Program-made: the position numbers and the translations under genes
Notes under the pieces: model-generated
The model's input: the letters and a program-made list of their open reading frames with translations, nothing else
The model's database searches: none
What the model was told of the DNA's origin: nothing
In this document: positions 27,134 to 48,426 of the stretch, one piece after another
Layout: the number at the start of each line of letters is the position of its first letter
Position numbering within the stretch: position 1 is the stretch's first letter
Assembly: GCA_035873375.1 (NCBI GenBank)
Contig: JAYWMQ010000006.1
Span: forward strand, 135,706 to 199,705
Reading direction: 5' to 3'
Source: Nitrospirota bacterium
GTDB lineage: Bacteria > Nitrospirota > Thermodesulfovibrionia > Thermodesulfovibrionales > JdFR-85
DNA: 64,000 nucleotides

Positions 27134-28303
27134 TCATTCCCCGCCTTGACCCCACTTCTCCCTGAACCCCAGGGCAAAGGCCCTGTAAACAAGGTCCAGA
27201 AAACTCTCTCTTCCGATTCCCCGGGACTCTCCTGACAGGGCGGTTCTGTAGTATTCCAGACGGTGATATTTCCCTGAGAGCGCAGCAGCAATCTGTGCTC
27301 CATAGGTTGAAAGAATTTCGGGCACACAACTCTTCGGCAGTATCTCCCACTGAATCTTGTCCCTGAGGTGAACTATTGCTGCAACTGCCGCTACTGTAAG
27401 CGGATCGTTGTTTATGGAATTAAAATTCCTGCGGTAAAGTTCAGCCTCTTTTTCTGAAAGATAGCCGGTAATACCTGCACACATGGTGTCCATGCTGAGC
27501 CCGAAACGCTCCAGGTGAACACGGGCAAAACATCGGGCCTCCGGAGTGAGCTTGTTTTGCAATGACAGGGTCTTTTTTATTGCCTGAAGGACCGAGCGGC
27601 CGATCAGTTCACCGAGTTTGGAGTGCTTGCCCGCCCCCGTGAGGGGGGCACCGGTGTCCAGCCTGGAGGCAATCCCGATCTGGTCCGTGCCTGTTCCCGT
27701 GGCAAGCCCATCCGAATAGCGCGAAGGCACGGCAAGTTCCTGAAGGGCCGCTGTCTTGGCCTCAGTGGCGGTTATCACTGAACGCACCATTGCCGCAGGA
27801 GTCAGTTCCCTGTTGATGAACAGCATGGTGTTAATGGTGCCGTGAGCTGCCACCGGAGCTGTCCCCAGTTTCTCAAATACACCGTTGCTTTCATATACTG
27901 AAGCCGGATCACCAATCCTGCCTGCATTCGTCTCAACTCCCCCCGTGCATACAGCAACCACCCCCAGGTCACGAAATTTTTCCGACACTATGGCCGCATT
28001 ATTCATGTTTGCTGCAGTACCAAGGGAAGCGCTCTTTTCAGGTGGAAGCCCATACCGCTCACATATAGACCTCCTGTATCCGTCCGGATCAGAGCTCATT
28101 CTCCTGTGTGATTCATGGGAGTGTCCAGCTGGTTCACACGCCTGGTGATTGTAGATATACTCCAGGTCATCCCTGAGTCCGCCGTCCACACGGCAGGTGG
28201 ATATCACCCTGTGGGGAGACAGAAACCTGACATAGATAATCTTCTCCTCCCTGTGAACCTCAATTGCATCATAGAATCTTTCCAAAAGCATATACTCCTC
28301 CAT
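27134..28303 (-). CDS. cbiZ: Adenosylcobinamide amidohydrolase (CbiZ-like)
   Basis: NHQACEP, LGTAANM, GTIN, ATEAKTAAL, TGTGTD, KHSKLGELIG. Confidence 0.85.
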   Translation of the reverse strand: MEEYMLLERFYDAIEVHREEKIIYVRFLSPHRVISTCRVDGGLRDDLEYIYNHQACEPAGHSHESHRRMSSDPDGYRRSICERYGLPPEKSASLGTAANMNNAAIVSEKFRDLGVVAVCTGGVETNAGRIGDPASVYESNGVFEKLGTAPVAAHGTINTMLFINRELTPAAMVRSVITATEAKTAALQELAVPSRYSDGLATGTGTDQIGIASRLDTGAPLTGAGKHSKLGELIGRSVLQAIKKTLSLQNKLTPEARCFARVHLERFGLSMDTMCAGITGYLSEKEAELYRRNFNSINNDPLTVAAVAAIVHLRDKIQWEILPKSCVPEILSTYGAQIAAALSGKYHRLEYYRTALSGESRGIGRESFLDLVYRAFALGFREKWGQGGE

Positions 28304-29199
28304 TACAGATATAATCTGGAGATCTCGTAGATCCCCCGTAACCGTGATACATAAAGAATATCCCAGAGATAAAGACCATAAAGTATCTTCAGCAGCACAA
28401 GGGCTGTTGTGCTCAGAAGGACAACGGAGAGAAGCACCTTTTCTCCCTTTCCAAGCTGTCTGCTTTCGGCAGTTGAGCGGGCAGCCGAAGGCTGAAAAGC
28501 CCTTGACTGAATTGAGAGTGACAGTATATTCGACCTCCTGTAGCAGTTGATAAAGACAGGCCGTATCAGCTTCAGCCAGTTTTTAAGAAGCCTTGCCGGA
28601 TTGAAAGAGAGCACCCTTGCACCCCTCATACGCATGGCAAGAATAACAGTGGCAAACTCGTCCATTATGGCCGGAATAAACCTGATGGCAGTCACTGTCA
28701 TGAATGCAAGCACATAGGGCACCCTCAATTGAAGCATGCCCGAAAGCATCTTCCCTGTATCAGTACTCCAGCAGAAGAGAAAACCAAAGGTCATCATGGA
28801 GGCAAACCTCAATGACTGGATGGCACCATAGCGGAACCCTTCACGGTAGATACTTATATCCCCTGTCCACTTACCTATCAGGGGGGTATCCATATTGACA
28901 AGGTTTATGAGCACGGTCCTTGGTTCTTCAAAGTAGAAGATGGACTGGGAAAACATCGTTCCCCATACCGTCAATACAACAAGAAAAAGGAGCAGACGCA
29001 GCTTTGACCATTCCACCCGCTCAATACCTGCCAGAACCCATGAAACAGAAAAAAGAATGATGAGAGGAACCGTATTTTCAAGCATTACCGCATAGACCGA
29101 GATGCAGAGAAGGCCAATGATCTTGACCCTGGGATCGAGCCTGCCGATAATTCCCTGACGTTCCCTCTGCCGGGTAAGGCTGCTGATACCATAGCTCAT
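28303..29199 (-). CDS. ecfT: ECF transporter transmembrane T component
   Basis: LDPRVK N-terminus, RFIP, and two Arg-containing coupling-helix motifs (AMRMRGA, SIQSRAF). Confidence 0.85.
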   Translation of the reverse strand: MSYGISSLTRQRERQGIIGRLDPRVKIIGLLCISVYAVMLENTVPLIILFSVSWVLAGIERVEWSKLRLLLFLVVLTVWGTMFSQSIFYFEEPRTVLINLVNMDTPLIGKWTGDISIYREGFRYGAIQSLRFASMMTFGFLFCWSTDTGKMLSGMLQLRVPYVLAFMTVTAIRFIPAIMDEFATVILAMRMRGARVLSFNPARLLKNWLKLIRPVFINCYRRSNILSLSIQSRAFQPSAARSTAESRQLGKGEKVLLSVVLLSTTALVLLKILYGLYLWDILYVSRLRGIYEISRLYL

Positions 29200-31122
29200 C
29201 TAACCGTCCTCCCATTTCAACCGATCGCTGAATCGCCAGCCCATAAATGTCGCTGCAAAGGTATAGAGCAGGCTGTTCACTATCAGGGTCATGTATATGT
29301 ACCAGTCAGCAAAGTAGAGTCGGAAGAGCACCATATGCAGGTAGAGCCCGGTCAGGGTTATAAATGCATCGGCAACACACAGATAGAGCGCCAGATAAAA
29401 GACAGACGGTGTATTCCAGCGGAAATTTTCTCCCTTGCGCGTAAGTCCCGACATGTAGAAGGCCGCCTCCTTTGCAACTATGCCCGTACCTGTAAATAGT
29501 ATGTCCGTCAGTTGAAACCCGCCAAACATTATGCCGTTGAGCATATAGCGGACAAGGGTCGCAAATGTGACAGTGCCGGGTCTCGGGATCGACCTGACGA
29601 GCGAGACAAGGAGTGTCCAGTAAAGCAGCTCTGAAAAGAAACCTGTAACAAAGGCGCTGAAGGGACCGAGCAGTGCCGAGACAAGGTTTCCGAATATCCT
29701 GACAGGCAGGTTTGAGACCACAAAGGTCATTGCCCCGTAGAGTGAGATGATAACCAGCCACCTGACCTTCATGCCTGCCACAATATTTTTAAACCTGAGG
29801 ACAAAGACCAGAGTGGCAGTCAGACTCAGAAATACAGCAAAGAGTGTAAATGTCCATGCAGTCAGGTTCATGGATGTGACATAGAGGGGGAACTCATATT
29901 CTGCAACAGGGAGGACCGAGCCCATAGGGATAAGCTTTACCACCCTGCGGTACTCTCCGGGCAGGGGGTCAGAGGTTAAATAAACAGGCATCACCACCCG
30001 TGTCTTTTCTCCGGGCAGAAGCATGGCTGTCACAGTGACGGCCGTCTCCTTTGTCCCGCCGGTCAGCAAGTCCGGCGGTCTGAATGCCTCAGGCGTGATG
30101 TCACGGTCTTTATAATAGATACCGGAGTTGACAAGCAGTGCAATGCTGCCGGTCCCGGTGTTTTCCAGGACAAGGCTCTGATATGTAAAGGGATGATTGT
30201 AGTCAATATACTTTGGCTCAACCCCGAAAAAACGTCCGAGTTTCCGAAATACAGCGGGCTGTATGTATAGCGTGTCTTCTGCATACCGCCTGAGGGCTAT
30301 ACCGCGAATACCTACAGGTATTGATGTCTTTACAAGCCTTATTGTCTCCCCTGCTGATTCCTGTTTAACGACCTTGATGGTCACATCCCTGCTGAAGAAA
30401 GACTCCCTGCCTCCAGCTCCTTTCAAGGTAATGCCTGCATGGAGACGATACTTCCCTTCACCCGGCACCTGTATGCTGAAGGGGAGATAAAACCTCTCAT
30501 AAGCAACGGAGAGGGTTGTTCTGAAGTATATTACGGTCTCTTCTTCCCTGAAGACGACTCTCGTGTCACGGTTTTGCGGAAAAGCCGCAACCTTTACCCC
30601 TGCAGGGATGGTGACACTGCCTGTAATGATGGTCTCATCCTGCTGATATGTGGTAATGATAACGGCAGAGGTCAGTTCATTATTCTCAACTGCCGTGCTT
30701 AAAGCCTGCATCTCATTTTCAAATACCATGCCACCAGCCTGTTCAGCCATTGAGGTGAACGGGGCTGAAAACTGGACAGCAACAGCATAGTCATTATCCG
30801 GAGATTTTTCCTTTATATCCATAGTTCCCTGATTGCTTATGAGCCTGAATCTGTAGGTTGTGTTACTCTTCCAGTCAAAGGCAAGCCAGAGGTTCCCTTT
30901 CTTTATGTTGTTCAGGGACTGAGAGACGATCACACCTTCCGGACCCTGAATCCCGATAGACTTAAGTCTCAGCGGAGAGCTGAAAAACAGCCATGCACCA
31001 TCAGGGACAAACTTCACATCTGCCTCCTGCAAGGCCTCGTGTGGTGCAAGCAGATACCATGCAGTAACGCCGGTGCCTGCAAGTAATATAATAATTATGA
31101 TAGTTTTTTTAACCTTACTCAT
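29200..31122 (-). CDS. Membrane protein: N-terminal anchor, about 390-aa extracytoplasmic domain, extra TM, C-terminal ECF S-component-like domain
   Basis: Hydrophobicity read by eye. The last ~190 aa start LVIISLYGAMTFVV, like S-component helix 1, with ~6 TMs. Lies next to ecfT. Confidence 0.65.
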   Translation of the reverse strand: MSKVKKTIIIIILLAGTGVTAWYLLAPHEALQEADVKFVPDGAWLFFSSPLRLKSIGIQGPEGVIVSQSLNNIKKGNLWLAFDWKSNTTYRFRLISNQGTMDIKEKSPDNDYAVAVQFSAPFTSMAEQAGGMVFENEMQALSTAVENNELTSAVIITTYQQDETIITGSVTIPAGVKVAAFPQNRDTRVVFREEETVIYFRTTLSVAYERFYLPFSIQVPGEGKYRLHAGITLKGAGGRESFFSRDVTIKVVKQESAGETIRLVKTSIPVGIRGIALRRYAEDTLYIQPAVFRKLGRFFGVEPKYIDYNHPFTYQSLVLENTGTGSIALLVNSGIYYKDRDITPEAFRPPDLLTGGTKETAVTVTAMLLPGEKTRVVMPVYLTSDPLPGEYRRVVKLIPMGSVLPVAEYEFPLYVTSMNLTAWTFTLFAVFLSLTATLVFVLRFKNIVAGMKVRWLVIISLYGAMTFVVSNLPVRIFGNLVSALLGPFSAFVTGFFSELLYWTLLVSLVRSIPRPGTVTFATLVRYMLNGIMFGGFQLTDILFTGTGIVAKEAAFYMSGLTRKGENFRWNTPSVFYLALYLCVADAFITLTGLYLHMVLFRLYFADWYIYMTLIVNSLLYTFAATFMGWRFSDRLKWEDG

Positions 31123-32999
31123 CAGTGAATTATATGAACCCGGTACCTTCCCTTATTCGTGCCCTTTGCATCAGTAAACGGCACCTCCACGAGCGCTATA
31201 TACCTGCCGTCTGGTGATATGTCAGCCATGAAAAAGACCGGACCTTCCGTGGGATAAAGATAGATGAGTTTATCCATACCGGATCCCTTCCTTGATGTAT
31301 CAAAGAGAGTGGCCCCAAAAAAGGATGTCATACCGCCCCTGCGGGAGCCTGCCATCCCTGCAACGGCATTAACAGTAAAGAGCCACCTGCCGTTCCTGGA
31401 GAGATAAATGCCCTGCATGGAGCCGTAGGACTTCCATTTCCATCTCAGCCTGCCGTCAAAACCAAAGGCATAAAACTGATTTGCCGCAGGATGGGGCGCG
31501 GGTTTCTGCACCTTGCCTTTTACAGCACCTGAAGGAATGGAGGTTCCGGGCAGAACAAAGTAGACAGCATCAGGCCCGACCCTGGCATAGCTTATGTAGG
31601 ATGAGACTGGAATATCCCCGATCAGGACAGGTGTACCGATCTCCCTTATCCACACGGGACTGTTCTGTTGAAATCTCTTTCCCTCTACCTTTACAGCACT
31701 CTCTGTATCGAAGAACATTCCCCTGCCGTCATTAAGCCCGATTGCCGCATACCTGCCGTCCCTGGAGAGGGCAACCCCCTGCCAGGCACTGGCCGTCTCG
31801 TAATACGGCCTCAGGGGCGGCACCCTGTACTCCCACAGGACCTCTCCTGTCCTGCCGTTGAGGCAATAGAGTGTGCCGTTTCCGTACAGGGAATCAGTGC
31901 GCTCAGGTGGACGCCATGTTGACGTAAGAAGCAGGAGTTTCTCCCCACTGGCTGAGATATCAAACCATGTAAGGCTGTAGGGAAGCGGCCTGTCCACTGG
32001 CCACCGCCATTTTATACTGCCGGTCCTGCCGTTGAACCGGTAGACCATGCACCTGTAAAGCCTCCTGCCCTCCTTGTTCCATCCATGTGTGCCGACCACG
32101 ACCACATCACCACCGGGAAGCACCTTCAACTGGTAGACACCCGGAAACTTGTATATCGCATAACGGTCATTTTCCCTCTCAGGCCTCGATGTCTCAATGT
32201 CGTCAGCCAGGCGGTACTTCCATATTTCCCTGCCTGTCATTGCATCAAGACAGTAAAGATACCCGTCAGGTGACTGCTCTCCCACATACAGCACCCTTTG
32301 TCCGTCTATCTCTCCCCATCCAATACGCTTCACCATACCCTCAGCGATCTTCCGTGAGAAGACGACTTTACCGGTCCTCACCTCAACAACCCTGAGATAG
32401 CCCTGAAAACTGCCGATTGCAAGGTATTTATTGTCTTCTGAAAATTTCACGAATGTATCAGGGGCTGTCCCCTCGTCAATGCTGAATGGAACGACCTTTT
32501 CCAGCTCCACCCGCTGAACAAGCATGGGCGAAGGCTTGAGCGGCGCGGTAACCTCCTTCACAAACCGTGCATCTCTGCTGCGCACCTCCACGCTGTATTC
32601 CTCCCCGGGGCTCCATTTAAGGGGAATGAGCAGTTTTTTGTCTGCAAAAAGCACTGTTTCTTCATCCCCTTCGCCCTTCACCCACCTGAAAACCTTTCTC
32701 CCTTTCGAGCGGAGTGTAACCATCTTAAGCCCGCTCAGCTCCACAGCAAGTCCGTCACGGACAAAATAGACCTGAACCCCTGGCTGCTCCTTTATGCAGC
32801 CCTGCACAAAAACAAGCAGCAAGAGAGAGAAAAAAAGGCTCAACCGTCTGAATGATGAGAGATACCGGGGCGCAGGGTTTGAACGGTTTTTTTCGCTGAA
32901 AGCGAAAACCTCGGAGGCAGGCAGAATGCCTGTCGAGAATGAGTGAAAGCCCTGTGCCCCGGTATCTCTCAGGGGTTCCAACTCCAGTATATCAGGCAT
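31122..32999 (-). CDS. PQQ-like beta-propeller protein, probable lipoprotein
   Basis: Hydrophobic stretch ending VQGC. Repeats such as LYCLDAMTGREIWKY, YRFNGRTGSIKWRW, LYCLNGRTGEVLWEY. Confidence 0.75.
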   Translation of the reverse strand: MPDILELEPLRDTGAQGFHSFSTGILPASEVFAFSEKNRSNPAPRYLSSFRRLSLFFSLLLLVFVQGCIKEQPGVQVYFVRDGLAVELSGLKMVTLRSKGRKVFRWVKGEGDEETVLFADKKLLIPLKWSPGEEYSVEVRSRDARFVKEVTAPLKPSPMLVQRVELEKVVPFSIDEGTAPDTFVKFSEDNKYLAIGSFQGYLRVVEVRTGKVVFSRKIAEGMVKRIGWGEIDGQRVLYVGEQSPDGYLYCLDAMTGREIWKYRLADDIETSRPERENDRYAIYKFPGVYQLKVLPGGDVVVVGTHGWNKEGRRLYRCMVYRFNGRTGSIKWRWPVDRPLPYSLTWFDISASGEKLLLLTSTWRPPERTDSLYGNGTLYCLNGRTGEVLWEYRVPPLRPYYETASAWQGVALSRDGRYAAIGLNDGRGMFFDTESAVKVEGKRFQQNSPVWIREIGTPVLIGDIPVSSYISYARVGPDAVYFVLPGTSIPSGAVKGKVQKPAPHPAANQFYAFGFDGRLRWKWKSYGSMQGIYLSRNGRWLFTVNAVAGMAGSRRGGMTSFFGATLFDTSRKGSGMDKLIYLYPTEGPVFFMADISPDGRYIALVEVPFTDAKGTNKGRYRVHIIH

Positions 33000-35900
33000 C
33001 CGTCCTCTCCTCTATATCCCCCTCCACATCAAGATACACATCCTCAAGCCTCTTTTTCATCTCCTCAGAGGCATTCCACATTCCCCGATTAGCTGCCTCG
33101 AGGAGACGCTCGGCAATATTCTGCAGGGCATAGGGATTAACCTCTTTAAACCACTTCTGCATCTCCTCATCAAGCGCGTACTTTTCAGACAGGGCATCAT
33201 ACATCCAGTCTTCCATAACATCAGAGGTGGCATCCCAGTGGAATGAGATATCCACAGCCCTTGAGAGGTCTCCTGCACCCTTGTACCCGTGGCGCATGAG
33301 ACCCTCCATCCACTTGGGATTGAGTATCCGAGAGCGGAAGATATGTTTTGTCTCCTCCTGAATGCTCCTGTACCTGACACGATCCGGGTCGGATGCATCA
33401 CCTGAATATGCCTTTGGATAATTACCGGACACCGTCTTAACTGCTGCCACAAAGCCTCCAAAGTAGGCATTAAAGTCATCAGAGGAGAGCAGGTCATACT
33501 CCCGTGAATCCTCGTTTTTCACTACAAGGCTGATATCTGAAAGCCTCCTGCGGAACACCTCTCTCCTGTCTTCCCCATAAACCCCTTTGCCGTATGCATA
33601 CCCACCCCATGTAATATAGACCCCCCCCAGGTCCTCGCTCTTCTCCCATGCCTTTGCGTCAATAGCTGCCGGGATTCCCGCACCATAGACACCGGGGGGA
33701 TCGCTGAAGATACGGAATGATGCCTCACGCAAGGCCTCTTCAGGGTCAATACCGCGTTCAACAAGCTCTTCAGCCTCTGCCAGTACGTGTTTTCTCAAAA
33801 AATTCTTTCCATCAGGCTCATTGAGGGCAGTCACCATTGCTACAGCCTCATCCAGGAGTTCCATCAGGTTGGGGAACGAGTCCCTGAAAAAGCCTGACGT
33901 CCTGAAAGTCACATCCACGCGCGGAAACTTCAATTCCCCGACAGGGATAATCTCAAGCCCCTCGATACGCCCGTTCCTGCCGTTCCATATCGGCTTCATA
34001 CCCATAAGGTAGAAAGCCTCTGCAATGTCCTCACCCATTGTACGCATTGTAGGGCTGCCCCAAATGACCATGCCTATGCTTTCAGGAGGCTTGCCTGTCT
34101 CATTCATATGTCTTTCAACAAGTGCGTCTCCGAGTGCCTTGCCGGTGGCCCATGCAGTGAGGGACGGAATCCTGAAGGGATCAACGGAGAAGAAATTCCT
34201 TCCTGTGGGCAGGATGTCCACCATACCGCGGGTAGGAGTACCGCTGCCGCCGGGAAGGACATGCCTGCCTGAAAGGGCGGCAGCCACTGAATCTATCTCC
34301 TCTGTGGTCCGTTCCAGTTTCGGCAGTACGACATCCCTTATAAACTCCACCACTCTGCGCACCTCCGGGCCTTCATCTGCAATCAGGGGCTCGCTACCCT
34401 CTATCACAACTTTCACCATCTCAAGGGCAGTCCTGTGGATCTCTGTTATTGCAACGGCATTTGTGGGGAACCGGCCTGTCGGGTCTGCTTGTCCCCTGTA
34501 TTGAAGGAGATTGTCATAATCGTATCCCCACTGCCTTGCAATCGCCTCCCTCAGGGATGGTACATCCCCGTTTTTGATCCGCACCAGTTGAGTAACAAGC
34601 TCTGCAAGTCCTTCATCCTCGGGCACAATGCCCATTACGTGAAGGCCGTCATTGATGGCAGTATCAGCAACCTCGGAAAGATAGGAATGCAGCCTCTCCA
34701 CAAAAGCGTCAAAGTCTAAAAATGCTTCATCCTCAGAGACCTCTATATCCGAGTGAAGATTGTCTTTTGTGGCCAGTTGCCAAATCTCCTTCTGGAGTAC
34801 AGGCAGTCTTGCAGGGTTCATGGACTTTGTCTGGATGTACTCAAGGATTTTTGTATCCACCTCTGCCAGCCCCTCATACCTGTCGGCATTGGTCATAACA
34901 GGGATAAGGTGGTCAACCACACAGGCATAGGAGCGGCGCTTTGCCTGTGTGCCCTCTCCGGGGTCATTGATGATATAGGGATAGATATTCGGCAGGTCCA
35001 TTATGGAAATGTCGGGATAACACTCCTCAGAAAGCGCCAGAGACTTGCCGGGCAGCCACTCAAGGGAGCCGTGCTTGCCGATGTGGAGCACTGCATCCGC
35101 CTTAAAAACATCCCTTATCCACCTGTAATGAAATATGTAATGATGGCTTGGCGCAAGATGCGGGTCGTGAATCTTTTCAGGCTGCTCAACAAAGCCCCTT
35201 GGCGGCTGAATGCCTATGTATACATTGCCGTTGATAATCCCGTTGACCATAACCTCGTCTTCATGGACAAAGAGCTCACCCGGAATGTCTCCCCAGTCCT
35301 TAAGCATGTGTCTTTGGTTCTTCTCCGGGAGACCTTCGTGCCATACACTGTATTGAGCAGACCCAATACGGTCAGCCGCCTTCTGCGCCATACCCTCAGG
35401 GGTAAGCCACCTCCTGTCAGCAGTAACCCCGTCAAGTATCTCATGCGCAAGGGCATCACCTGATTCATACTCCCTTTCAATTGAATACCCCTCCTGCTTC
35501 AGCCTGTCGAGAATATTTTTAACACTTTTAAAGGAGTCAAGCCCTGCGGCACATCCGATGCGGTCATTGCGCGGCGGATAGTTATGAAAGATTACAGCTA
35601 CCCTCTTTTCAGCATTCGGCTTTATTCTGAGCATTGCCCATTTCCCTGCAAGGCTCACGATCTTCTCTATCCGCTCCTCAACAGGCATATTCCTCAGCAG
35701 CGTTGCACCTGTAAGCAGATCCTGTTCCGCCACATCCCTTGTTGAGACAGGCACGGTAATAAGGATGCCGTCAAACTCCGGCTGTGCTGCGCTTATGCAG
35801 ACATCCAGGGGAGTAGCCCCCTGTTCGGTCTCTTTCCAGTCCCTGTGGGTCGTAAAGAGGGTAATCGCCTGCAGAACCGGCACTCCGATCTTTTCATAAA

Positions 35901-36729
35901 CTCTGGCAAACTTGGGGAGGGTGAGCCTCATTGAAAAGACCATGCAACTCAGGAGCACATGGATAATGGTCTTTCCATCCACCTGAAAAAAATTCTCCGC
36001 AACCCACTCCGGGTCCCTGTTATTCAAAATCCTGTCAGGAAACCGGTTATAAAAGCATGCAATGGGAAAGCCCCCCTGCCTCTCTATCTCGTTGACAAGG
36101 CTGTCGACAAACGCCAGGTTGCCGTCCACGTAATAACCCTGATAAAACCACATGCCTATTATGGGAGTCTTTTTATCTTCAAGCTCTTTCAGGGATGTGC
36201 CCTGTGAGTCTATGTACTCGTTAAGTGTCAGGGACACCCCTGTGCGCGGGTGATAGATGCCCTCGCAGGGCATCTTCTGCGGCGGGTCACAGGGAATATC
36301 CTCTCCCGAGAACTTTTTTATCAGACTCCTGAAGAGATTTGTCCAGTTATCCCTGCCACCGAACTTGATAAAGCGCACCATCTCATCAAAAAAATCACTG
36401 CCGTATTCTGTGGAGTACTGTGCAGAGAGCGACATCTCGTCCTCATCACCGGGCTGAATGAAGACAAAGGCATTCCGGGATTCTTCAATCAGCCGGTCAA
36501 AAAACCTGAATGATTTTCTGCCTCCATGGAGTATCACGATTACACAGTCTGCTGTCTGAAGGTGATGAGTAAAACGATCCATCATCTTTGAGTCAAAAAG
36601 GTCGTCACTGGTCCGTGCCTGCACCTCCATACGTCCGGGATACTCCTCTTCTATCCGGCGAAATGCGCTGGTCATGCTTATCATTCCGGTGCCTGTGGCA
36701 TTAAATACAACTGTCTTTATCTTTTTCAT
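32992..36729 (-). CDS. cobN: Cobaltochelatase large subunit CobN (CobN/ChlH family)
   Basis: HIGKHGSLEWLPGK, NDPGEGTQAKRR, PTGRNF, NPKWMEG; 1245 aa. Confidence 0.92.
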   Translation of the reverse strand: MKKIKTVVFNATGTGMISMTSAFRRIEEEYPGRMEVQARTSDDLFDSKMMDRFTHHLQTADCVIVILHGGRKSFRFFDRLIEESRNAFVFIQPGDEDEMSLSAQYSTEYGSDFFDEMVRFIKFGGRDNWTNLFRSLIKKFSGEDIPCDPPQKMPCEGIYHPRTGVSLTLNEYIDSQGTSLKELEDKKTPIIGMWFYQGYYVDGNLAFVDSLVNEIERQGGFPIACFYNRFPDRILNNRDPEWVAENFFQVDGKTIIHVLLSCMVFSMRLTLPKFARVYEKIGVPVLQAITLFTTHRDWKETEQGATPLDVCISAAQPEFDGILITVPVSTRDVAEQDLLTGATLLRNMPVEERIEKIVSLAGKWAMLRIKPNAEKRVAVIFHNYPPRNDRIGCAAGLDSFKSVKNILDRLKQEGYSIEREYESGDALAHEILDGVTADRRWLTPEGMAQKAADRIGSAQYSVWHEGLPEKNQRHMLKDWGDIPGELFVHEDEVMVNGIINGNVYIGIQPPRGFVEQPEKIHDPHLAPSHHYIFHYRWIRDVFKADAVLHIGKHGSLEWLPGKSLALSEECYPDISIMDLPNIYPYIINDPGEGTQAKRRSYACVVDHLIPVMTNADRYEGLAEVDTKILEYIQTKSMNPARLPVLQKEIWQLATKDNLHSDIEVSEDEAFLDFDAFVERLHSYLSEVADTAINDGLHVMGIVPEDEGLAELVTQLVRIKNGDVPSLREAIARQWGYDYDNLLQYRGQADPTGRFPTNAVAITEIHRTALEMVKVVIEGSEPLIADEGPEVRRVVEFIRDVVLPKLERTTEEIDSVAAALSGRHVLPGGSGTPTRGMVDILPTGRNFFSVDPFRIPSLTAWATGKALGDALVERHMNETGKPPESIGMVIWGSPTMRTMGEDIAEAFYLMGMKPIWNGRNGRIEGLEIIPVGELKFPRVDVTFRTSGFFRDSFPNLMELLDEAVAMVTALNEPDGKNFLRKHVLAEAEELVERGIDPEEALREASFRIFSDPPGVYGAGIPAAIDAKAWEKSEDLGGVYITWGGYAYGKGVYGEDRREVFRRRLSDISLVVKNEDSREYDLLSSDDFNAYFGGFVAAVKTVSGNYPKAYSGDASDPDRVRYRSIQEETKHIFRSRILNPKWMEGLMRHGYKGAGDLSRAVDISFHWDATSDVMEDWMYDALSEKYALDEEMQKWFKEVNPYALQNIAERLLEAANRGMWNASEEMKKRLEDVYLDVEGDIEERTDA

Positions 36730-36774
36730 TCCTCAATCCTCCTGCTGATTTCCTTACGCATATGGCACTCGATA

Positions 36775-37809
36775 TCAGACCCCTGTCTTCATACCTCTTC
36801 GGCCCTTCCCGATCTCCTCAAACGGCTGCCTGCGCATACGATGTGGCAGGGCAAGCCCTGCAGCAACCTCAATATCCTCATCCGTGACATGGGTGCGTCC
36901 ATGCCAGGCTGCCAATGTCTTTGCTGTCTTGAGGGTGATTATATCCCCCCTGTGACCATCAACTCCCGCCTCCATACAGCGCGTTGCAATAGTGAAGAGT
37001 TTTTCCCTCTCGATCTTCACTTCCGGATACAGCTTTATCGCTGACTCAATCCGCTCAGCTGTCCTCGCAGACTCCTCCTTCCACTTCAGGCAGAAGACCT
37101 CCGGCTCGTCTTCAAAGGCGATCCGCCTCTCCATTACCTCCACCCTCTCTGCATGGTTCCGGCTGCCTTCAATGCTGACGCAGAGACCGAACCTGTCGAG
37201 GAGCTGCGGTCTCAATTCCCCCTCTTCGGGGTTCATGGTGCCTACCAGCGTAAACCGGGCAGGATGACTGAAGGAAACTCCCTCACGCTCCACGGTATTT
37301 ACTCCCATGGCAGCAGCATCCAGGAGCACGTCCACTACATGGTCGTCAAGCAGGTTAATCTCATCCACATAGAGGATTCCCCTGTGGGCTGCTGCAAGGA
37401 TGCCTGGCTCAAACCTCTTTTTCCCCTTGCTCAGGGCATGCTCGATATCCATGGTCCCGACAACCCGGTCCTCTGTAGCTGAAACAGGCAGCTCCACCAC
37501 CCTCACCTTCCGCCTTACAACATCAACGCCGTTTCCATTAAAAATCTCTTCAGCACAGCCCCTGTTGTCACAATCCCGGCAGACCCTTGAGTCTCCATTC
37601 CCGGGCATCTGGTAAGGACAACCCTTTACCACATCAATCAGCGGAAGTATGTCTGCCAGTGCCCTGACCGCCGTTGATTTTGCCGTGCCCTTCTCTCCCC
37701 TGACAAGTGCTCCGGCAATATGGGGATTGATGATATTAAGGATAAGGGCCAGTTTCATCTCATCCTGCCCCACAATTGCATTAAACGGATACATGGTTCT
37801 TCCGGTCAT
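36775..37809 (-). CDS. chlI: Chelatase AAA+ subunit (ChlI/BchI-like)
   Basis: [43 protein letters not shown]. Confidence 0.9.
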
Positions 37810-39890
37810 CAGATATTCCTCCTGACTATATTTACAATGTCGCCTGCCATAAGGTCATTAAAGCTGAAATGCTCTGCCCCCAGTGCTGAGGCAAGCCTTG
37901 CAGCAAGTCCGAACCTCACCACTGACTTTTCTTCCGTATCTATCACGATAAATTTTATCCGCTTCTCCCTTGACATCTCTCCGGCTATCCGCAGCACTTC
38001 GTCCTGCGGAGAAAGACGGTTGTCAATGGATACATTGGCCCTGCCGTCCGTAACGATTATTGCTATGGGGCGTGAAGAGGTCTCTTTCACAAGATGCACG
38101 CCGAGCAGATTAAAACCCTTGAGAAGCCCCTCTGACATGGGAGTGCGTCCTCCCACAGGCATCTCGCTGAGGTGTCTTACGGCAAGTTCAACAGACGAGG
38201 TGGGCGGCAGGTTGACCACGGCCTTTCGCTGTCTGAAGGTCACCATTGCCACCTTGTCTCTTTTCTGATAGGCATCGAGCAGGAGGGAGAGGATTGCCCC
38301 CTTGGTTGCAATCATGCGTGCCTTTGCCCCCATTGAGCCGCTGGCATCAACCATAAAGACAAGGAAATTCCCTACCCTCTTCTCCCTTATCTTTCTTCGT
38401 ATATCATCCCTGCGTATGGATATGGCCATTCCTCTCTCTTTTTCCCTGCTCCCCTGGTGCGGAGCAGCAGCCCTGATGGTCGCATCAATGGCTATATCAG
38501 GATATTTATCACTCTGAATACTTTTCACAAACCTGCCGCTCTTCTGCGTTGTTCTTGTCCTCGTACGTCTGCCCGAACCACGGCGCACAAGGCGATCCTT
38601 CTCCTGCGTAATACTCTGCACCCTGAATGTGCGGCCTGGCTCAAATACCTGTTCAGTACCCCCTGACGGCTCATCCTCTTCAGAGGACGATTCAGGATCA
38701 GGAAGTCCCCTCTGATAATCCTCCTCCACACCATCCATTTCACCGTCCCTGTCCTCTCCATTTTCATGGGGCTGATTCTTTATGTCATTGTTGTCAACAG
38801 ACCTGTTTTGCCCTTGCTCCTTCTGATCATCCCCGTCACCGGAATCATCACGGTTATCAGGATCATCATGCCCGGGTGGCGGCGGGGGCGGGGGCAGGGC
38901 ATCCCTTCTGCGGTGCAGTATTGCCATACCGGCCACACGGTTTATGTCACTGACCGTTACAGCGGAGCGGCCCTCATAGGCGGCAAGGGCCCTGGCTGCA
39001 TATTTTATAGCCATGTCCGCCCTGTGACCTGCAACGTTGTTTTGCAGGCATATTTCAGAGATAAGGCCAAGGAGTCGCTGAGGAAAGACCACCCCTTCAA
39101 GTCTTTCCCCCGCACTCCTGATCCGATCTGCAATCCCTCTGTTCTCGTTGAGGTAACGGGCTGCAAACTCCACGGGATTGTTGTCATAGCTGTCCCTCAT
39201 CTCCATGAGCCGTACCCTGTTGTCAGGATCGCCCTCCCCTCTAATCTCAACACAGAGGCCGAAGCGGTCGAGCAACTGAGGACGGAGCGCCCCTTCTTCA
39301 GGATTCATGGTGCCTGCAAGAATAAATCGTGAGGGATGAAGATATGAAAGTCCTTCACGCTCCACAATATTTATACCGCTTGAGACAGCATCGAGGATTA
39401 TATCCACTAAATGGTCATCCAGAAGATTAACCTCATCTATGTAGAGGATTCCCCTGTTTACCCTGGCAAGGAGCCCCGGCTGAAAACGCCTTTGCCCTTT
39501 CCTCATGGCAAATTCAATATCCAGGCTGCCGGTGACCATCTCCTCTGTTGCATTCAGCGGAAGGGTGACAAGGGGAACCTTGATATATCCGCTTTCAGGA
39601 TAATTTCCAGTCTTGATCTTCCCTGCACATTCAGGACAGAGGAGCACCCTGTTGTCAGGATCACAGAGACACGAACATCCCCTGACCACTTTTATATCAG
39701 GTAAAAGACTCCTTAATGCCCTGACTGCCGTTGATTTTGCAGTACCTTTCTCCCCCCTGATGAGTACACCGCCGATGCGGGGCTCTATTGCATTGAGGAT
39801 AAGTGCAAGCTTCATCTCCTCCTGTCCCATGATTGCGGAGAAGGGATAAAGATAATCCTCTGTCAGTGTCCTGTTGTTATTAAACTCCAT
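37809..39890 (-). CDS. chlD: Chelatase subunit D (AAA + Pro/acidic linker + vWA)
   Basis: [16 protein letters not shown] followed by a D/E-rich linker, MIDAS VDASGSM. Confidence 0.9.
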
Positions 39891-41556
39891 TCACCACTCC
39901 TATAAATTCCTCAACTGTAAGTGCAGGCGGGGAGATTCCGCTTTTCCTTGAAAGCATGAAGGACAACGAAGGCAGAAGGCCTGCATCTTTGAGGGCCTCT
40001 TCACTGCCAAGCACCTCCCTGGCCGGACCGTCAGCAACCACACAGCCATCCTTCATAAGCAATACCCTGTTTGAAAAACGCACTGCTGTCTCAAAATCAT
40101 GCGTGCAGAAAACCACCGCCTCTATCCCGGCTTCATTTCTGATTATTCGGATCAGGTTGCATATATTCTCCTCGTTCTGCCCTGTCGTCGGCTCATCCAG
40201 CAGCAGCAGCCGCGGGTCCATGGCAAGCACCGCCCCTATCACCACCCTGAGACGCTGTCCTTTTGATAGGGCATGCGGGGGTATCCTTTCCAGTCCTTCA
40301 AGCCGAAGCATAGCGACAAGGGACCTGTTTCTTGCCATGCGCACCACTTTATCAACACCAAGATTCTTCTGGCTGAACTCCAGTTCAACCCACACACTGT
40401 CTTCAAATAACTGGAGGTCAGGATTCTGAAAGACCATTCCCACCCTGCCCGAATTTCCATGCCTGCGTCCCTTGAGACTGCTCAGTCCGTTCATTTCGGC
40501 ACTGCCTGCAACCGGCTGGTTCAGGCCTGACAGTATACTCAGGAGCGTTGATTTGCCTGAACCGTTCTGCCCCATGATCGCAATTATGTCACCACTGTAA
40601 ATCTCAAGAGAGACTCCTTTTAAGGACGGCTCCCCTGCCCCCCGGTAGGCAAAGGAGATATCCCTGAGAGAGGCAACACGTCTTTTTTTAGTGCCATTGT
40701 TTCCTGCAGGACTCTCATACCTGAAGCCCTGCTTTGATGGTTTGAGTTTAATGACTTCATCAATCAGATTCCCGGTCCACTCACTTGCCCATTCGTGGCA
40801 AACAGCCCCTGCAATCTGAACGGCATCAGGCACCTTGAGGCCAAGGGTTTTAAAAATTCCGGTATGTGCCGGCAGGTCCTTCCTGTCAATATCAAGGACG
40901 ACCCTTCCCTGGTCCATCACCATTATACGGTCGACAATCCCTATCACGTCATCCACCCTGTGCTCCACCAGGACGATGGTTATGCCCCTCTGCTTAAGGT
41001 CATCGAGACACCTGACTATCTCGGCAGTACCGGCAGGGTCGAGCTGGCTCACCGGCTCATCAAGCGCCAGCACCACCGGTCCCATGGCGAGTTGCGAGGC
41101 AATGGCAACACGCTGTTTCTGACCACCGGAGAGTCTTGCGGTCTGCCGTTCTTCAAATCCCTCAAGACCGACCTGGGCCAAGGCCTCCCCCACTCTCTTC
41201 GTGATCTCTGCAGGGGGAAGGCCGAGATTTTCAGGGCCGAATGATATCTCATCCCTCACTGTATTACAGAAGAGCTGATCATCAGGACTCTGAAATACCA
41301 TCCCCACATATTGCGAGATGTAGGGCAGGGACGAAGTGCGGGTCTCTATTCCGTTGACAACCACCAGACCCCGCATCCCACCTGCGCTCTCATGAGGGAT
41401 TATCCCACCCAGCATCTTCAGAAGCGTGCTCTTGCCGCAGCCTGTACGGCCTGTGACAAGCACGCACTGTCCCCTGGGCACGGAAAAGGAGACCTCCTGC
41501 ACTGACAGATCGCTGCGTCCTGCATATTTAAAGGAGACGTTTTTAAAGGTTATCAT
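39880..41556 (-). CDS. Duplicated ABC ATPase (ECF A-A' fusion)
   Basis: GRTGCGKST/LSGGQ/DEP and GQNGSGKST/LSKGQ/DEPT. FQSPDDQ and FQNPDLQ Q-loops are typical of EcfA. Confidence 0.9.
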   Translation of the reverse strand: MITFKNVSFKYAGRSDLSVQEVSFSVPRGQCVLVTGRTGCGKSTLLKMLGGIIPHESAGGMRGLVVVNGIETRTSSLPYISQYVGMVFQSPDDQLFCNTVRDEISFGPENLGLPPAEITKRVGEALAQVGLEGFEERQTARLSGGQKQRVAIASQLAMGPVVLALDEPVSQLDPAGTAEIVRCLDDLKQRGITIVLVEHRVDDVIGIVDRIMVMDQGRVVLDIDRKDLPAHTGIFKTLGLKVPDAVQIAGAVCHEWASEWTGNLIDEVIKLKPSKQGFRYESPAGNNGTKKRRVASLRDISFAYRGAGEPSLKGVSLEIYSGDIIAIMGQNGSGKSTLLSILSGLNQPVAGSAEMNGLSSLKGRRHGNSGRVGMVFQNPDLQLFEDSVWVELEFSQKNLGVDKVVRMARNRSLVAMLRLEGLERIPPHALSKGQRLRVVIGAVLAMDPRLLLLDEPTTGQNEENICNLIRIIRNEAGIEAVVFCTHDFETAVRFSNRVLLMKDGCVVADGPAREVLGSEEALKDAGLLPSLSFMLSRKSGISPPALTVEEFIGVVNGV

Positions 41557-41577: not shown

Positions 41578-43635
41578 CTAAAGTGAAACCCTGTAGCTTA
41601 GATACCAGGCCCGTCCGGATAATGGAAACTCCGGTTTTTCATAATAATACTCGTCAAAGATATTGTTGACCTTAAGGGTTAGCTCCTGCTGCTTTTTGAA
41701 TTTAATACCGGCAACAAGGTCAACAACAGTAAAGCCTTTATAGGTAATTTCGGGATATCCAGGTGTATACCAGTCATAATCCTTGCGGCTGCCAACGTAG
41801 CGGGCCAGCAGCCTTGTGTTGACCCGGCCGTCATCATAGCTGAGGCCGTAGTTCACCTTCCAGCGGGCAACGTTATGAATATTGTCCTCTTCTTCCCCGG
41901 GTATCTTCTCTGTTGCTTCAAAGAGCCTGGTGGCATTGGTAAAGAAACTGACAGAGCGGTCCCATTTAAAGAAGACTCCGGCATCCCATTTGAGTTCAAC
42001 CTCCATCCCTTCCATTCTGGCCTCAGCCGCATTCTCAAAAGTGGTAATATTGCCGTCCTTCTTCCGCGTGATCTTGTCGTCCACCCTTGTCAGGAAATAG
42101 GTTGTATCCAGGCTAAGCCCCCAGTCATTGCGGTCAAGGCCAACCCCTATATCCCAGGTCCAGCTCTTCTCAGGTCCGAGGTCAGGGTTTCCCTGTGTTA
42201 TCATTGTGGTGCCACCAACGATCCGCTCGGAATATCCGGCCATCTGGTAGGCATTAGGAGGCACAAAGGCCTTGCCCAGCGTGCTGTGAAGGTTCAGGAT
42301 GGAAGAGATAAAGTACTTGATTCCAAACCTTGGATTTATGGTATCAAAGTTTTCGCTGGCTGGATAAAAATCCGTCTTGTACGGGGTCTCCTTGGTCTCC
42401 ACATTGAAGTAATCATAACGAAGCCCTGCATTCAGTATGAGTCTGTTATCAAGAAACTTCCATAATGTGTCGCCAAAGACTGCCCAGTTCTCCCTTTCAT
42501 CATCAGGAGAATAAGGGGCCTTGCGGGTTCCGTCCTGTTTGTAGCTCTTACGTTCCTCCTCAATATCCTGGTAATCGGCTCCAACAGTAAACTGATGAGT
42601 CCTCCAGTGCGTTGCATTTTGAATCTGCACACCCTGCCACCTGGTGGCACTTTCGTAATTCTTGTAGGGCTCTGCAAGGACATAGGAGCCAACGCTGTAA
42701 TCATAGACATACTTCTTGTAATACTCACTGCTTTCATTGGAGGCAAAGACTGTAACCCTGCTCTCGTTTTGACCCCAAACCCTTCTTAACTGCATGTCGC
42801 CTCCGTAGCGCACAATATCCTTCCGGCTCTGCTGAAGATCACCGTAAAAGAGTGCTCCAGGCGTTTCAATATCAATTCCCTTATACAGATCACCCTTGAT
42901 ATCCAGCCTCCAGCCGGGGCTGAGGTCACTGCCGAGACGCAGCGAGCCATACCTTGTCTTGTACGAGGTTCCGGGGCGGATACCTTCTCCGTCACCCAGT
43001 TTCATGTCACTCACCTGTGTGTAGTTGCGAAGTGTCAGGTCGAAATCGAGCCAATCGGCAAGACGGCCTCCGGCAGCCAGCTTTTCAAAGTTGGTATCAA
43101 AACTGCCTCCACCCAATTCAGCAGAACCTGTGAGGGGGCCTATGGTCTTCTTTGTGATTATATTGATCACACCACCCATTGCTTCAGCACCGTAAAGGGA
43201 AGAGGCCGGCCCCTTCAGCACCTCTATGCGCTCTACATTGTCCATCAGGATAGTGGCAAGGTTGGTGGCACCGGCCGGCCGGCCGTCGATAAGGAGTAAC
43301 GAGTGCTTTGTAATCCCTGAAAACTCAGGTCTGAAGCCCCGTATGCTGATCCCTGAAAGTGCACCCGGGTACTCGATAACGTCAACATTGCTGTTCTTCT
43401 TGAGCTGTTCGGAAAGTGTATCTCCAGCAGTCGCCTTAATCTCTTCAGAGGTTATTACATCCACAACCTGGGGAACCTCTTTTTTCGGCATCTCCGTACG
43501 GGTTGCAGTAACAACAATCTCTTCCATAGCGTTAACGTCATTGCCTGTCGTGTCATCACCTGCAGACGCAGTTGTGACTATGAATAAAATACAGAGGGTA
43601 ATCAAAACAGGATACAAAAGATGCGTTGCTTTCAT
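41578..43635 (-). CDS. TonB-dependent outer-membrane receptor (B12-regulated)
   Basis: Signal peptide, TonB box EEIVVTA, plug ERIEVLKGPASSLYG, C-terminal NIFD.YY...GR.W. Confidence 0.92.
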   Translation of the reverse strand: MKATHLLYPVLITLCILFIVTTASAGDDTTGNDVNAMEEIVVTATRTEMPKKEVPQVVDVITSEEIKATAGDTLSEQLKKNSNVDVIEYPGALSGISIRGFRPEFSGITKHSLLLIDGRPAGATNLATILMDNVERIEVLKGPASSLYGAEAMGGVINIITKKTIGPLTGSAELGGGSFDTNFEKLAAGGRLADWLDFDLTLRNYTQVSDMKLGDGEGIRPGTSYKTRYGSLRLGSDLSPGWRLDIKGDLYKGIDIETPGALFYGDLQQSRKDIVRYGGDMQLRRVWGQNESRVTVFASNESSEYYKKYVYDYSVGSYVLAEPYKNYESATRWQGVQIQNATHWRTHQFTVGADYQDIEEERKSYKQDGTRKAPYSPDDERENWAVFGDTLWKFLDNRLILNAGLRYDYFNVETKETPYKTDFYPASENFDTINPRFGIKYFISSILNLHSTLGKAFVPPNAYQMAGYSERIVGGTTMITQGNPDLGPEKSWTWDIGVGLDRNDWGLSLDTTYFLTRVDDKITRKKDGNITTFENAAEARMEGMEVELKWDAGVFFKWDRSVSFFTNATRLFEATEKIPGEEEDNIHNVARWKVNYGLSYDDGRVNTRLLARYVGSRKDYDWYTPGYPEITYKGFTVVDLVAGIKFKKQQELTLKVNNIFDEYYYEKPEFPLSGRAWYLSYRVSL

Positions 43636-43671
43636 TTTTTTCTTCCTCCCGCGAGAAATTTTTAGTTTTTT

Positions 43672-43882
43672 TCCGGTCTGGACAGGTCTTCCGGCTCAGG
43701 GCGATAAGACAGTTGCGAGTTGCGGGTTCCGGGTTGCGAGTCAAACCGCGTCTCTTTCCTACTCACCCGCCTTCCCGTCATGGTGTTATCCATGACAGTG
43801 GCTTCTTTCGGGCTTTCGTTCCCTTCACGGCTGCGGGGCAGCGGGGGATTTTCACCCCTCTTCCCTGACATCCAGCCTTGTG
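43672..43882 (-). ncRNA. Cobalamin riboswitch 1
   Basis: Minus strand: AGGGAA-GGTGAAAATCC-GCTGCCCCGCAGCCGTGA...GCCACTG...GGGAAGG...GAGCCGGAAGACCTG, directly upstream of the receptor RBS. Confidence 0.93.
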
Positions 43883-44029
43883 GTCAAAATGCGTGTTTAT
43901 AAATTACTGCCTCTGTTCTCACCTCCCTTACTGTCAGATCCCTACTGTCATACTGAACTTGTTTCAGCATCTGCGTGTTACCTCTCCAAGATTTTCATAA
44001 CTTACGGTTTTTTCAGTCATGAACCGACC

Positions 44030-44806: not shown

Positions 44807-44862
44807 ATTTGTACGCCTCCTTTTTATCCTGAATCCGTTAATAAAAAGGTTCCGTCAACGTA

Positions 44863-45000
44863 AGGAAGTGATATGATAGAGTCTGAACGGTTTTAAGTAT
44901 CACAAAGGCTTCACCTGGATGGTGAACCGTGATACTTCCCTCGGAGTGCCGGCTGGATGCCGGGACGAGAATGAGTTCAGACTCTATCATATCGCTTCCT
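44863..45000 (-). repeat. Structured intergenic repeat, copy C (overlaps the nrdG stop)
   Basis: Terminal arms 25/26 complementary. The 94-nt core differs from copy B at 6 positions, including one compensatory pair. Confidence 0.9.
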
Positions 45001-47810: not shown

Positions 47811-47831
47811 TCCGCCTCCCTGGCAGTTCAT

Positions 47832-48044: not shown

Positions 48045-48083
48045 CTCTTTTCCTCCCGCGAGAAAAGATTTTAGATTTATATC

Positions 48084-48290: not shown

Positions 48291-48426
48291 ATGTTTAAAT
48301 TGTCATACTACAGTAGCACAGGGTTTTGATTTTTTTCAATAACCGGATTTTTCCAAAACCGGGTTCTTATCGTTATGCGTTTATTAAGTTTTCAGTACCC
48401 CATAGTCTCTGTGGCGGAAAGGTTCA

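Follow-up and report, generated by a model that had tools for sequence, protein, structure and literature searches.

Why should a strict anaerobe that builds its corrin ring by the ATP-independent early-cobalt route also carry an ATP-driven class I chelatase? This overlap has long been noted in comparative genomics, and the role of the class I enzymes in such organisms is the question raised by a locus in an anaerobic Nitrospirota bacterium of hot vents (assembly GCA_035873375.1). The locus lies in a stretch of 64,000 nucleotides (contig JAYWMQ010000006.1, positions 135,706 to 199,705 of the forward strand; hereafter the window), where a large chelatase subunit, CobN, and two partner subunits of ChlI and ChlD type are encoded among transport genes. 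The initial annotation, made from the letters alone, had proposed that the enzyme either inserts cobalt into scavenged metal-free corrins or swaps or removes the metal of imported tetrapyrroles. The analyses described here point to an accessory, B12-repressed, cobalt-inserting chelatase tied to scavenging, a general statement that we regard as probable, though well short of certain. The locus offers a compact, cross-phylum example of the overlap, in which a true CobN is an add-on to CbiK or CbiX, is repressed by B12 and is tied to CbiZ and to large-ligand uptake. Together, the CobN identity, the add-on status, the B12 repression and the tie to CbiZ and uptake narrow the candidate substrates to an assayable handful.

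Identity and integrity of the chelatase

The three chelatase genes follow one another on the minus strand:

37809-39890, minus strand: ChlD-type medium chelatase subunit, 693 aa (Pfam AAA_lid_2, Mg_chelatase and VWA)
36775-37809, minus strand: ChlI-type AAA+ motor subunit, 344 aa (Pfam; TIGR02030 and TIGR02442 scores)
32992-36729, minus strand: CobN, large substrate-binding chelatase subunit, 1245 aa (PF02514, 1282.6 bits)

All three open reading frames are uninterrupted and occupy exactly the positions first reported for them, which bears out the earlier description of intact CobN, ChlI and ChlD genes between transport genes. The Walker A (GEKGTAKS) and Walker B motifs are kept in both ChlI and ChlD, and ChlD has an acidic linker between its AAA+ and VWA domains and the metal-binding (MIDAS) motif DASGS at residue 515. 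ChlI is 51% identical to the N-terminal part of ChlD and scores 428 bits against TIGR02030 and 490 bits against TIGR02442, the model for a putative cobaltochelatase, against which ChlD reaches 768 bits, under the cut-off of 779. The partners of CobN are thus of ChlI/ChlD type, not CobS/CobT.

The large subunit passes the CobN equivalog model TIGR02257 (985.1 bits, cut-off 822) and stays under the cut-off of the BchH model TIGR02025 (792.5 bits against 829). Among solved structures, it scores highest against Mycobacterium tuberculosis CobN (7c6o, 768 bits), followed by CobN 9uk9 (673 bits), ChlH (502 bits) and HmuS (9d26, 341 bits). The superfamily active-site motif H-x-G-x-H-G, as defined together with the HmuS motif LSLDHxxEFMGG containing His-1209 and Glu-1212 (PMC12583661), is kept as HIGKHG at residue 549. 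At the place of the HmuS motif, the window CobN has LSSDDFNAYFGG, with Asp and Ala replacing His-1209 and Glu-1212. The 2026 CobSTN preprint offered no substrate-site residues usable for comparison.

A maximum-likelihood tree of 33 proteins was built with anchors named from annotated replicons, namely the Paracoccus cobW-cobN-cobG, Sphingobium cobW-cobN, Ralstonia CobN (with a ChlID-type partner) and Haloferax CobN, and with Roseobacter BchH and Prevotella HmuS (inside hmuY-hmuR-hmuS) as outgroups. Because it is a quick LG+G4 tree with long outgroup branches, only its strongly supported splits are used. A clade of 29 rows, holding all CobN anchors and all anaerobe sequences, excludes the Roseobacter BchH and the Prevotella HmuS with an SH-aLRT support of 100. 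A phylogeny against CobN, HmuS/BtuS and ChlH had been proposed as a check in the initial annotation, and the tree places the protein in the CobN clade. Within this clade, the window CobN belongs to a group of anaerobe sequences (25 rows, support 86), with the anchor CobNs as its sister group. The protein neither reaches the BchH cut-off nor falls inside BchH in the tree (other bch genes were not searched for), and by profile, structure ranking and phylogeny the large subunit is a true CobN rather than an HmuS or a ChlH. No hydrophobic or transmembrane segment and no signal peptide was found in CobN, ChlI or ChlD, and all three are placed in the cytoplasm. As judged from these features, the complex is a complete cytoplasmic CobN-type insertion enzyme with ChlI/ChlD-type partners, and its CobN is the sole PF02514 gene of the genome.

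These results weaken the comparison with HmuS and BtuS: the protein passes the CobN equivalog, ranks by structure as CobN over ChlH over HmuS, groups with CobN, and has neither an anchor nor the HmuS His/Glu motif. They also bear on the explanation in which the enzyme would act in the manner of HmuS on imported corrinoids or metallo-tetrapyrroles, removing or exchanging the metal and thereby harvesting cobalt or repairing mis-metalated rings. HmuS demonstrates that the superfamily can run in reverse, and HmuS (Bacteroidota hmuYRSTUV, PDB 9d26) shares with the window protein its superfamily, the conserved His of H-x-G-x-H-G, an anaerobic host and a neighbourhood with a TonB-dependent receptor and ExbB/ExbD-type genes (PMC12583661). 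However, HmuS is a membrane-anchored protein of about 1469 aa that works without AAA+ partners, depends on NADH and has the motif LSLDHxxEFMGG, whereas the window CobN has 1245 aa, is soluble and comes with ChlI and ChlD; its score against 9d26 is only those 341 bits, and in the tree it is widely separated from the Prevotella HmuS. Of the hmuYRSTUV context, the receptor and ExbB/ExbD are present at the window operon, but HmuY and DUF2149 are not. A complete AAA+/VWA insertion motor is encoded here, whereas hmu loci have none, and the operon in the window contains no exporter, hydrolase or reductase. Cobalt is held so tightly in the corrin that, to our knowledge, no mild way of removing it has been described. 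Metal removal or swapping, as one half of the initial proposal, has become less likely because of the CobN identity (by hidden Markov models, structures and tree), the cytoplasmic location without a membrane anchor and the missing HmuS motif, and we now consider it very improbable.

The corrin pathway of the host

The assembly (2.67 Mb in 63 contigs, 99% complete) encodes CbiL, CbiD, CbiE, a CbiG-CbiJ fusion, CbiF, CbiH and a ThiC/BzaB-like gene on contig C61, CbiC and CbiK on contig C25, and HemA, HemC and CobA-HemD on contig C22. CbiB, CobQ/CbiP, two CbiA-like genes, a SirC/Met8-like gene and HemH are also present. The host is an anaerobe with an early-cobalt corrin route. A full late-insertion cob pathway that needs the enzyme, which according to the initial annotation would have explained the chelatase away, was looked for and is not there: the best CobG score in the genome is 19.9 bits against a cut-off of 234.8, no CobF occurs (all TP_methylases of the genome are CbiL, CbiE, CbiF, CbiH, CobA-HemD or RsmI), and early-route genes stand in its place. 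With neither CobG nor CobF (CobZ was not searched for), hydrogenobyrinic acid a,c-diamide is unattainable by the known route. The chelatase is surplus to the known corrin route of this host. The premise that CobN belongs to the aerobic late route while anaerobes usually use CbiK or CbiX has to be qualified, as CobN in anaerobes is not unusual (PMC6461909).

The only CbiK of the genome (contig C25, L003:5100-6071, minus strand) lies inside a cbi cluster and carries a Sec-type signal peptide; it has a porin-like gene on one side and PepSY_TM, ABC-2 and BtuCDF-like transport genes on the other. All genomes of the family have CbiK in this signal-peptide form. The predicted cleavage site is followed immediately by a conserved Met-(Met/Leu)-Lys-Thr, which makes an internal start, giving a cytoplasmic form, conceivable.

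A single CbiK with a signal peptide favours a second explanation, which is that CobN-ChlI-ChlD serves the de novo route as a second, high-affinity, ATP-driven chelatase under cobalt scarcity. Low cobalt would lower B12 and open the riboswitch described below, and the enzyme would insert Co2+ into sirohydrochlorin or a later intermediate where the ATP-independent CbiK is too slow, while the uptake genes would at the same time supply chelated cobalt or finished corrinoids. Biosynthetic cbi genes are typically under riboswitch control. However, members of the family encode CbiD and a signal-peptide CbiK without CobN, so the route runs without CobN, and we know of no class I enzyme that acts on sirohydrochlorin. 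We regard this back-up function as a genuine possibility, though on balance an unlikely one. A stricter form, with CobN as the only cytoplasmic cobaltochelatase, was rejected on account of the same relatives, of the CbiK or CbiX present in 23 of 23 other CobN-clade genomes, and of the SirC/Met8-like gene and HemH found here.

In the cbiD gene (contig C61, L002:1087-2177), a tandem duplication of 14 nt, with ACTCTGAACTCTTG occurring twice (around L002:1258-1285), breaks the reading frame in two. The N-terminal 60 residues lie in one frame and the rest in another, and each part matches the intact gene of a genus relative at 92-93% identity. Either de novo corrin synthesis is truly inactivated here or the split is an assembly error in a short repeat; if the split is real, the cell depends on scavenging. 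In addition, contig C25 has a CbiL fragment at its end (C25:1-366) and C61 a full CbiL at its start (C61:140-844), which means either two copies or a contig break within a repeat of the cbi cluster.

Operon organization and control

The chelatase genes belong to a tightly packed gene string on the minus strand that runs from a riboswitch at about 43.9 kb through ExbD at 25.0 kb. Besides the three subunits, it comprises the following features:

43664-43890, minus strand: cobalamin riboswitch aptamer (Rfam RF00174, 75.3 bits against a gathering score of 31.5)
41578-43635, minus strand: TonB-dependent outer-membrane receptor, 685 aa, with signal peptide (Pfam Plug and barrel domains)
39880-41556, minus strand: fused double ATPase of energy-coupling factor (ECF) type, EcfA-A'/CbiO-like, 558 aa (two ABC_tran domains)
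31122-32999, minus strand: PQQ-like beta-propeller protein with a lipoprotein-type signal (Pfam PQQ_2 match)
29200-31122, minus strand: membrane protein, 640 aa, with a C-terminal ECF S-component fold (structure models; no Pfam match)
28303-29199, minus strand: CbiQ-family ECF T component, 298 aa (PF02361, 97.3 bits; transmembrane segments)
27134-28303, minus strand: long CbiZ, 389 aa (PF01955, 213.6 bits)
25997-26794, minus strand: TonB (Pfam TonB_C)
25432-25974, minus strand: ExbB (Pfam MotA_ExbB)
25053-25442, minus strand: ExbD (Pfam ExbD)

The chelatase is flanked upstream by the receptor and the fused ECF ATPase, and downstream by the propeller protein, the membrane protein, CbiQ, CbiZ and TonB/ExbB/ExbD. 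From the receptor to CbiZ the intergenic spacings are 21, -11, -1, 45, -8, -1, 0 and -1 bases, and this range of -11 to 45 bases marks the genes as one operon. The TonB-ExbB-ExbD set starts 339 bases downstream of CbiZ and is the energising set for the receptor of the operon. The operon is larger than first described, and its riboswitch had not been recognized in the initial annotation. The 3' end of the aptamer lies 28 nt ahead of the receptor ATG, adjoining the Shine-Dalgarno sequence GGGAGG. The riboswitch, receptor, ECF importer and CbiZ, as partners of the chelatase in one operon, fit a role in scavenging.

Control by a cobalamin riboswitch, recurring across phyla as described below, also argues against a third explanation, in which the enzyme would handle another metal or a non-corrin tetrapyrrole for a cofactor needed when B12 is short, with CbiZ and the importer as unrelated passengers of the regulon. 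Many CobN-like proteins of anaerobes and archaea are without an assigned function (PMC12583661), and the haem-like receptor agrees with such a role. However, the protein lies inside the CobN clade, CobN is paired with CbiZ, and no regulator or chaperone for nickel or another metal was seen among the operon genes. We judge this explanation about as improbable as metal removal.

The uptake genes

The operon contains an importer of ECF type, with A, T and S components all present. The fused ATPase exceeds the cut-offs of both ECF ATPase models, TIGR04520 (398 bits) and TIGR04521 (387 bits), and has two Walker A motifs. The S component was recognized in the 640-aa membrane protein, which has no Pfam match (for the periplasmic part even at E 5) and no PDB sequence match. 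The AlphaFold2 model of the whole protein (mean predicted local distance difference test, pLDDT, 92.7) comprises an N-terminal anchor, Ig-like beta-sandwich domains (residues 34-417) and a helical membrane domain. A Foldseek search with this whole model returned arrays of Ig-like domains only, and the Atlas feature search gave weak leads only (0.86; PF09819 at rank 10). When the C-terminal domain was folded alone (pLDDT 91.6), its top 15 VIA matches were all ECF S components, with Z scores of 8.2-11.0 against 6.5 for the next match and root-mean-square deviations of 3.1-4.9 Å over 148-187 residues. The S components matched are RibU, ThiT, FolT, BioY, PanT, CbiM/NikM, BtuM and 5edl, the last of which is also the best Foldseek match (E 8e-3).

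Complex prediction of the C-terminal domain with CbiQ reached 0.65, against 0.00 for the best of three controls, and passed a mark that is reached by 58 of 80 solved complexes and by 2 of 110 mismatched pairs. Three runs share at least 89% of the contacts, with a partner pLDDT of at least 76. The prediction supports binding of the S-component domain to CbiQ, although the pass may reflect likeness, because ECF complexes have already been solved. The family of S-component fusions, for which no Pfam model exists, has 381 representatives at E<=0.001 in a 50%-clustered library.

A canonical CbiM cobalt importer is encoded elsewhere in the genome, so the importer of the operon need not carry Co2+. 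The importers associated with CobN are of the kind for large organic ligands, a further point against a mere back-up function under cobalt scarcity. The receptor scores 261 bits against the TonB-hemin model TIGR01785 and 146 bits against the TonB-B12 model TIGR01779, both below the cut-offs, and by these scores it is nearer to the haem-receptor subfamily than to BtuB. A haem-receptor-like TonB receptor together with ExbB/ExbD recalls hmu loci and to that extent favours removal of a metal from imported tetrapyrroles.

The propeller protein has a hydrophobic stretch ending in Cys, which is a lipoprotein-type signal, and translation probably begins about 50 codons further downstream than listed. 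Its homologues have 560-575 aa. The N-domain is without a Pfam match even at E 5, and comparison with PDB sequences gave generic WD40/PQQ matches only. In other phyla, too, the propeller gene adjoins the gene for the S-component fusion. In addition, the propeller protein is 25% identical over 300 residues to a propeller of Haloferax mediterranei (L107:1518-2747, plus strand), which is without a signal peptide and is encoded between CbiX/DUF3209 and ChlD-CobN. This similarity suggests that members of one propeller family accompany CobN in bacteria and archaea alike.

The long CbiZ

The CbiZ of the operon is the only one in the genome (the only PF01955 match). Its adenosylcobinamide amidohydrolase domain covers residues 26-242 and is followed by a C-terminal extension of about 147 aa, which is without a Pfam match (even at E 5) or a PDB sequence match. 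The CobN-linked CbiZ copies seen in other loci are all 388-401 aa long. CbiZ occurs within 10 kb of CobN in 22 of 54 loci, many of which end short, and a back-up function in the de novo route leaves this repeated pairing of CobN and long CbiZ unexplained.

In one Chloroflexi contig, CbiZ directly abuts CobN. There (L009:6305-9773), the CobN-CbiZ pair is followed by a xylose-isomerase-like (AP_endonuc_2) gene, a NifH-NifD-like fusion and a second nitrogenase-like gene, and these nitrogenase-like genes resemble reductases of F430 and chlorophyll synthesis.

Distribution of the locus

CobN orthologues more than 90% identical to the window protein occur in four of seven other genomes of the same genus. 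The genus assemblies are 78-98% complete and break within the cbi cluster, which limits what they say on the co-occurrence of CobN and cbi genes. Searches of other genera of the family yielded no orthologue, only distant homologues of about 30% identity in two genomes, and most family genomes have CbiD without CobN. The next relatives of the window CobN are from Chloroflexi (63% identity) and Desulfobacterota (about 60%). Six vent Nitrospirota-type contigs share the complete gene order from receptor to ExbD, and a Polyangia contig has all operon parts in a different order. In one genus relative, the receptor has been exchanged (L048:50-2100; 28% identical to the window receptor), while CobN is 96% identical and the rest of the operon is unchanged.

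Among 12 CobN loci scanned, from five phyla that include Nitrospirota, Desulfobacterota, Acidobacteriota and Bacillota, nine have a cobalamin riboswitch upstream on the same strand; none was found at the gathering score in L048, where the upstream DNA is cut off, or in L053 and L096. Related CobN loci carry TonB-dependent receptors, BtuFCD-like ABC systems or the same ECF module. The recurrent link of CobN to the riboswitch, CbiZ and uptake systems fits starvation-induced corrinoid scavenging.

In Dethiosulfatarculus sandiegensis and Desulfobacula toluolica, the same module (riboswitch, receptor, fused ECF ATPase, propeller protein, S-component fusion and CbiQ) holds a second paralogue, here called CobN-B, right after the receptor (L007:17734-21450; L008:36-3716). 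CobN-B is 30% identical to the window CobN, and its catalytic His, otherwise invariant, is changed to Glu (HFGGEG or HFGAEG). The other paralogue there, the orthologue of the window CobN (59-60% identical), is grouped with ChlD, ChlI and CbiZ; in D. sandiegensis this group includes a radical SAM gene and adjoins the module.

Among the 23 other CobN-clade genomes, a phylogenetically clustered sample reached through related CobN loci, all have CbiC and all have CbiK or CbiX, so that CobN is an add-on and not the primary chelatase. This co-occurrence makes the case for a second chelatase of the de novo route nearly as strong as that for scavenging, and the CobN proteins of Ralstonia and Haloferax, which with their ChlD-type partners lie inside biosynthetic clusters (CbiD, CbiE, CbiC, CbiX), add to it. 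Harvested cobalt would likewise be useful to producers only, so the same count also fits metal removal, as do the ABC-2 exporters, CN-hydrolases and radical SAM genes that relatives carry beside the chelatase.

Comparison with known systems

The closest described counterpart is the riboswitch-led operon-2 of Dehalobacter restrictus PER-K23, with CobN, Mg-chelatase-type subunits, two CbiZ genes and transporters; in cells starved of corrinoids, its RNA was induced 346-fold and its protein 46-fold (PMC4285132). Shared with this operon and its counterpart in Acetobacterium woodii (Rupakula et al. 2015, PMC4285132) are the riboswitch, corrinoid-type transporters, CbiZ, CobN and ChlI/ChlD in a strict anaerobe that has a cbi set. 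In each of Dehalobacter and the window host, one de novo gene looks broken, cbiH in the former and cbiD in the latter. However, Dehalobacter is monoderm and has FepBCD/BtuCDE-like ABC importers and two CbiZ paralogues, whereas the window operon has a TonB-dependent receptor with TonB-ExbBD, an ECF importer with the S-component fusion and a propeller lipoprotein; induction was measured in Dehalobacter, and the window operon is known from its genes. With a riboswitch, CobN, ChlI/ChlD-type subunits, CbiZ and an uptake system in a single cluster, the window locus is of the operon-2 type.

Riboswitch-controlled CobN-ChlI/ChlD genes beside CbiZ and transporters in anaerobes are thus already in the literature, and the distinctive features of the window locus are the combination of a TonB receptor with an ECF importer and the clean three-gene chelatase. 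The first description of B12-regulated cobN/chlID is reportedly that of Rodionov et al. in 2003. Comparative genomics has found that neither of the two chelatase types is exclusive to one corrin route (PMC6461909), CobN with ChlI/ChlD-type genes is described in the anaerobe Chlorobium (PMC8620254), and the 2025 HmuS paper raised the unassigned CobN-like proteins as a question (PMC12583661).

With the late-insertion enzymes, CobNST or CobN-ChlID, the window chelatase shares the large-subunit clade, the catalytic motif and the three-subunit, ATP-driven design, and its ChlI/ChlD partners are as in Ralstonia and in TIGR02442. It differs from them in a host without CobG and CobF, in having no adjacent cobW, and in its place within an uptake operon rather than among biosynthetic genes. 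Its CobN clade is sister to the anchored aerobic CobN clade and not inside it.

Proposed role in corrinoid scavenging

Cobalt insertion into scavenged cobalt-free corrins, the other half of the initial proposal, is possible. In the mechanism that we propose, low adenosylcobalamin would open the riboswitch, and the TonB-energised receptor would take up a corrinoid-type tetrapyrrole. The ligand could then pass, by way of the propeller lipoprotein and the periplasmic part of the S-component fusion, to the ECF importer, in which this fusion is joined by CbiQ and the fused ATPase. Once in the cytoplasm, it would have its side chain or nucleotide loop trimmed by the long CbiZ, and CobN-ChlI-ChlD would load Co2+ into those corrins that arrive cobalt-free, of hydrogenobyrinic or hydrogenobyric-acid type. 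The product would join the late pathway of the host (CbiP, CbiB and later steps), for which CbiB, CobQ/CbiP and CbiA-like enzymes are encoded. In favour of scavenging stand the recurrent association of CobN with long CbiZ and with organic-ligand importers, and the induction data from Dehalobacter. The full mechanism, with an imported cobalt-free corrinoid as the substrate, is offered tentatively, as an account that may well prove wrong.

Several points weigh against scavenging with re-metalation. We know of no evidence that cobalt-free corrinoids are available in such habitats. A pure salvage enzyme would be expected in non-producers too, and with 23 of 23 genomes belonging to producers, a role linked to de novo synthesis fits at least as well. 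In addition, the receptor has more in common with haem receptors than with BtuB, the frameshift in cbiD could stem from misassembly of a short repeat, and CbiZ and the importer could be merely co-regulated functions of B12 supply that have no substrate in common with CobN. On present evidence, scavenging with re-metalation still ranks ahead of the back-up chelatase, and this ahead of metal removal or exchange, which is the weakest of the three because every HmuS test failed and an insertion motor is present.

If the substrate is indeed an imported cobalt-free corrinoid, both the salvage route and this class of exchanged metabolites would be new. More broadly, B12-making anaerobes might practise re-metalation salvage, in which cobalt-free or wrong-metal corrins are imported by dedicated TonB/ECF or ABC systems, trimmed by a long CbiZ and loaded with cobalt by CobN-ChlI-ChlD; we consider this conceivable, yet doubtful. 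If true, B12 could be obtained in a third manner, alongside de novo synthesis and cobamide remodelling, and a pool of cobalt-free corrinoids in anoxic habitats would be implied. If the enzyme is instead a back-up chelatase for low cobalt, it would explain how anaerobes continue to make B12 in sulfidic, cobalt-poor waters.

Genomic surroundings

The G+C content is 49-52% over the chelatase operon and an adjoining nrdDG unit (about 26000-48000), against 44-47% in the flanks and 46% in the genome. With this raised G+C, the patchy occurrence in the family and the next relatives in Chloroflexi and Desulfobacterota, the operon looks like an accessory acquired from outside, as far as composition and homology can tell.

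The neighbouring nrdDG and RACo-like genes, cited in the initial annotation as signs of anaerobic metabolism, are present: nrdD at 45717-47831, nrdG at 44977-45720 and the RACo-like gene at 15457-16938 (plus strand). A second cobalamin riboswitch (48074-48301, minus strand) precedes nrdD, nrdG and a pterin-binding, methyltransferase-like gene, which form a unit at 44030-47831 on the minus strand. With this riboswitch ahead of nrdD-nrdG, the B12-independent ribonucleotide reductase also appears to be repressed by B12.

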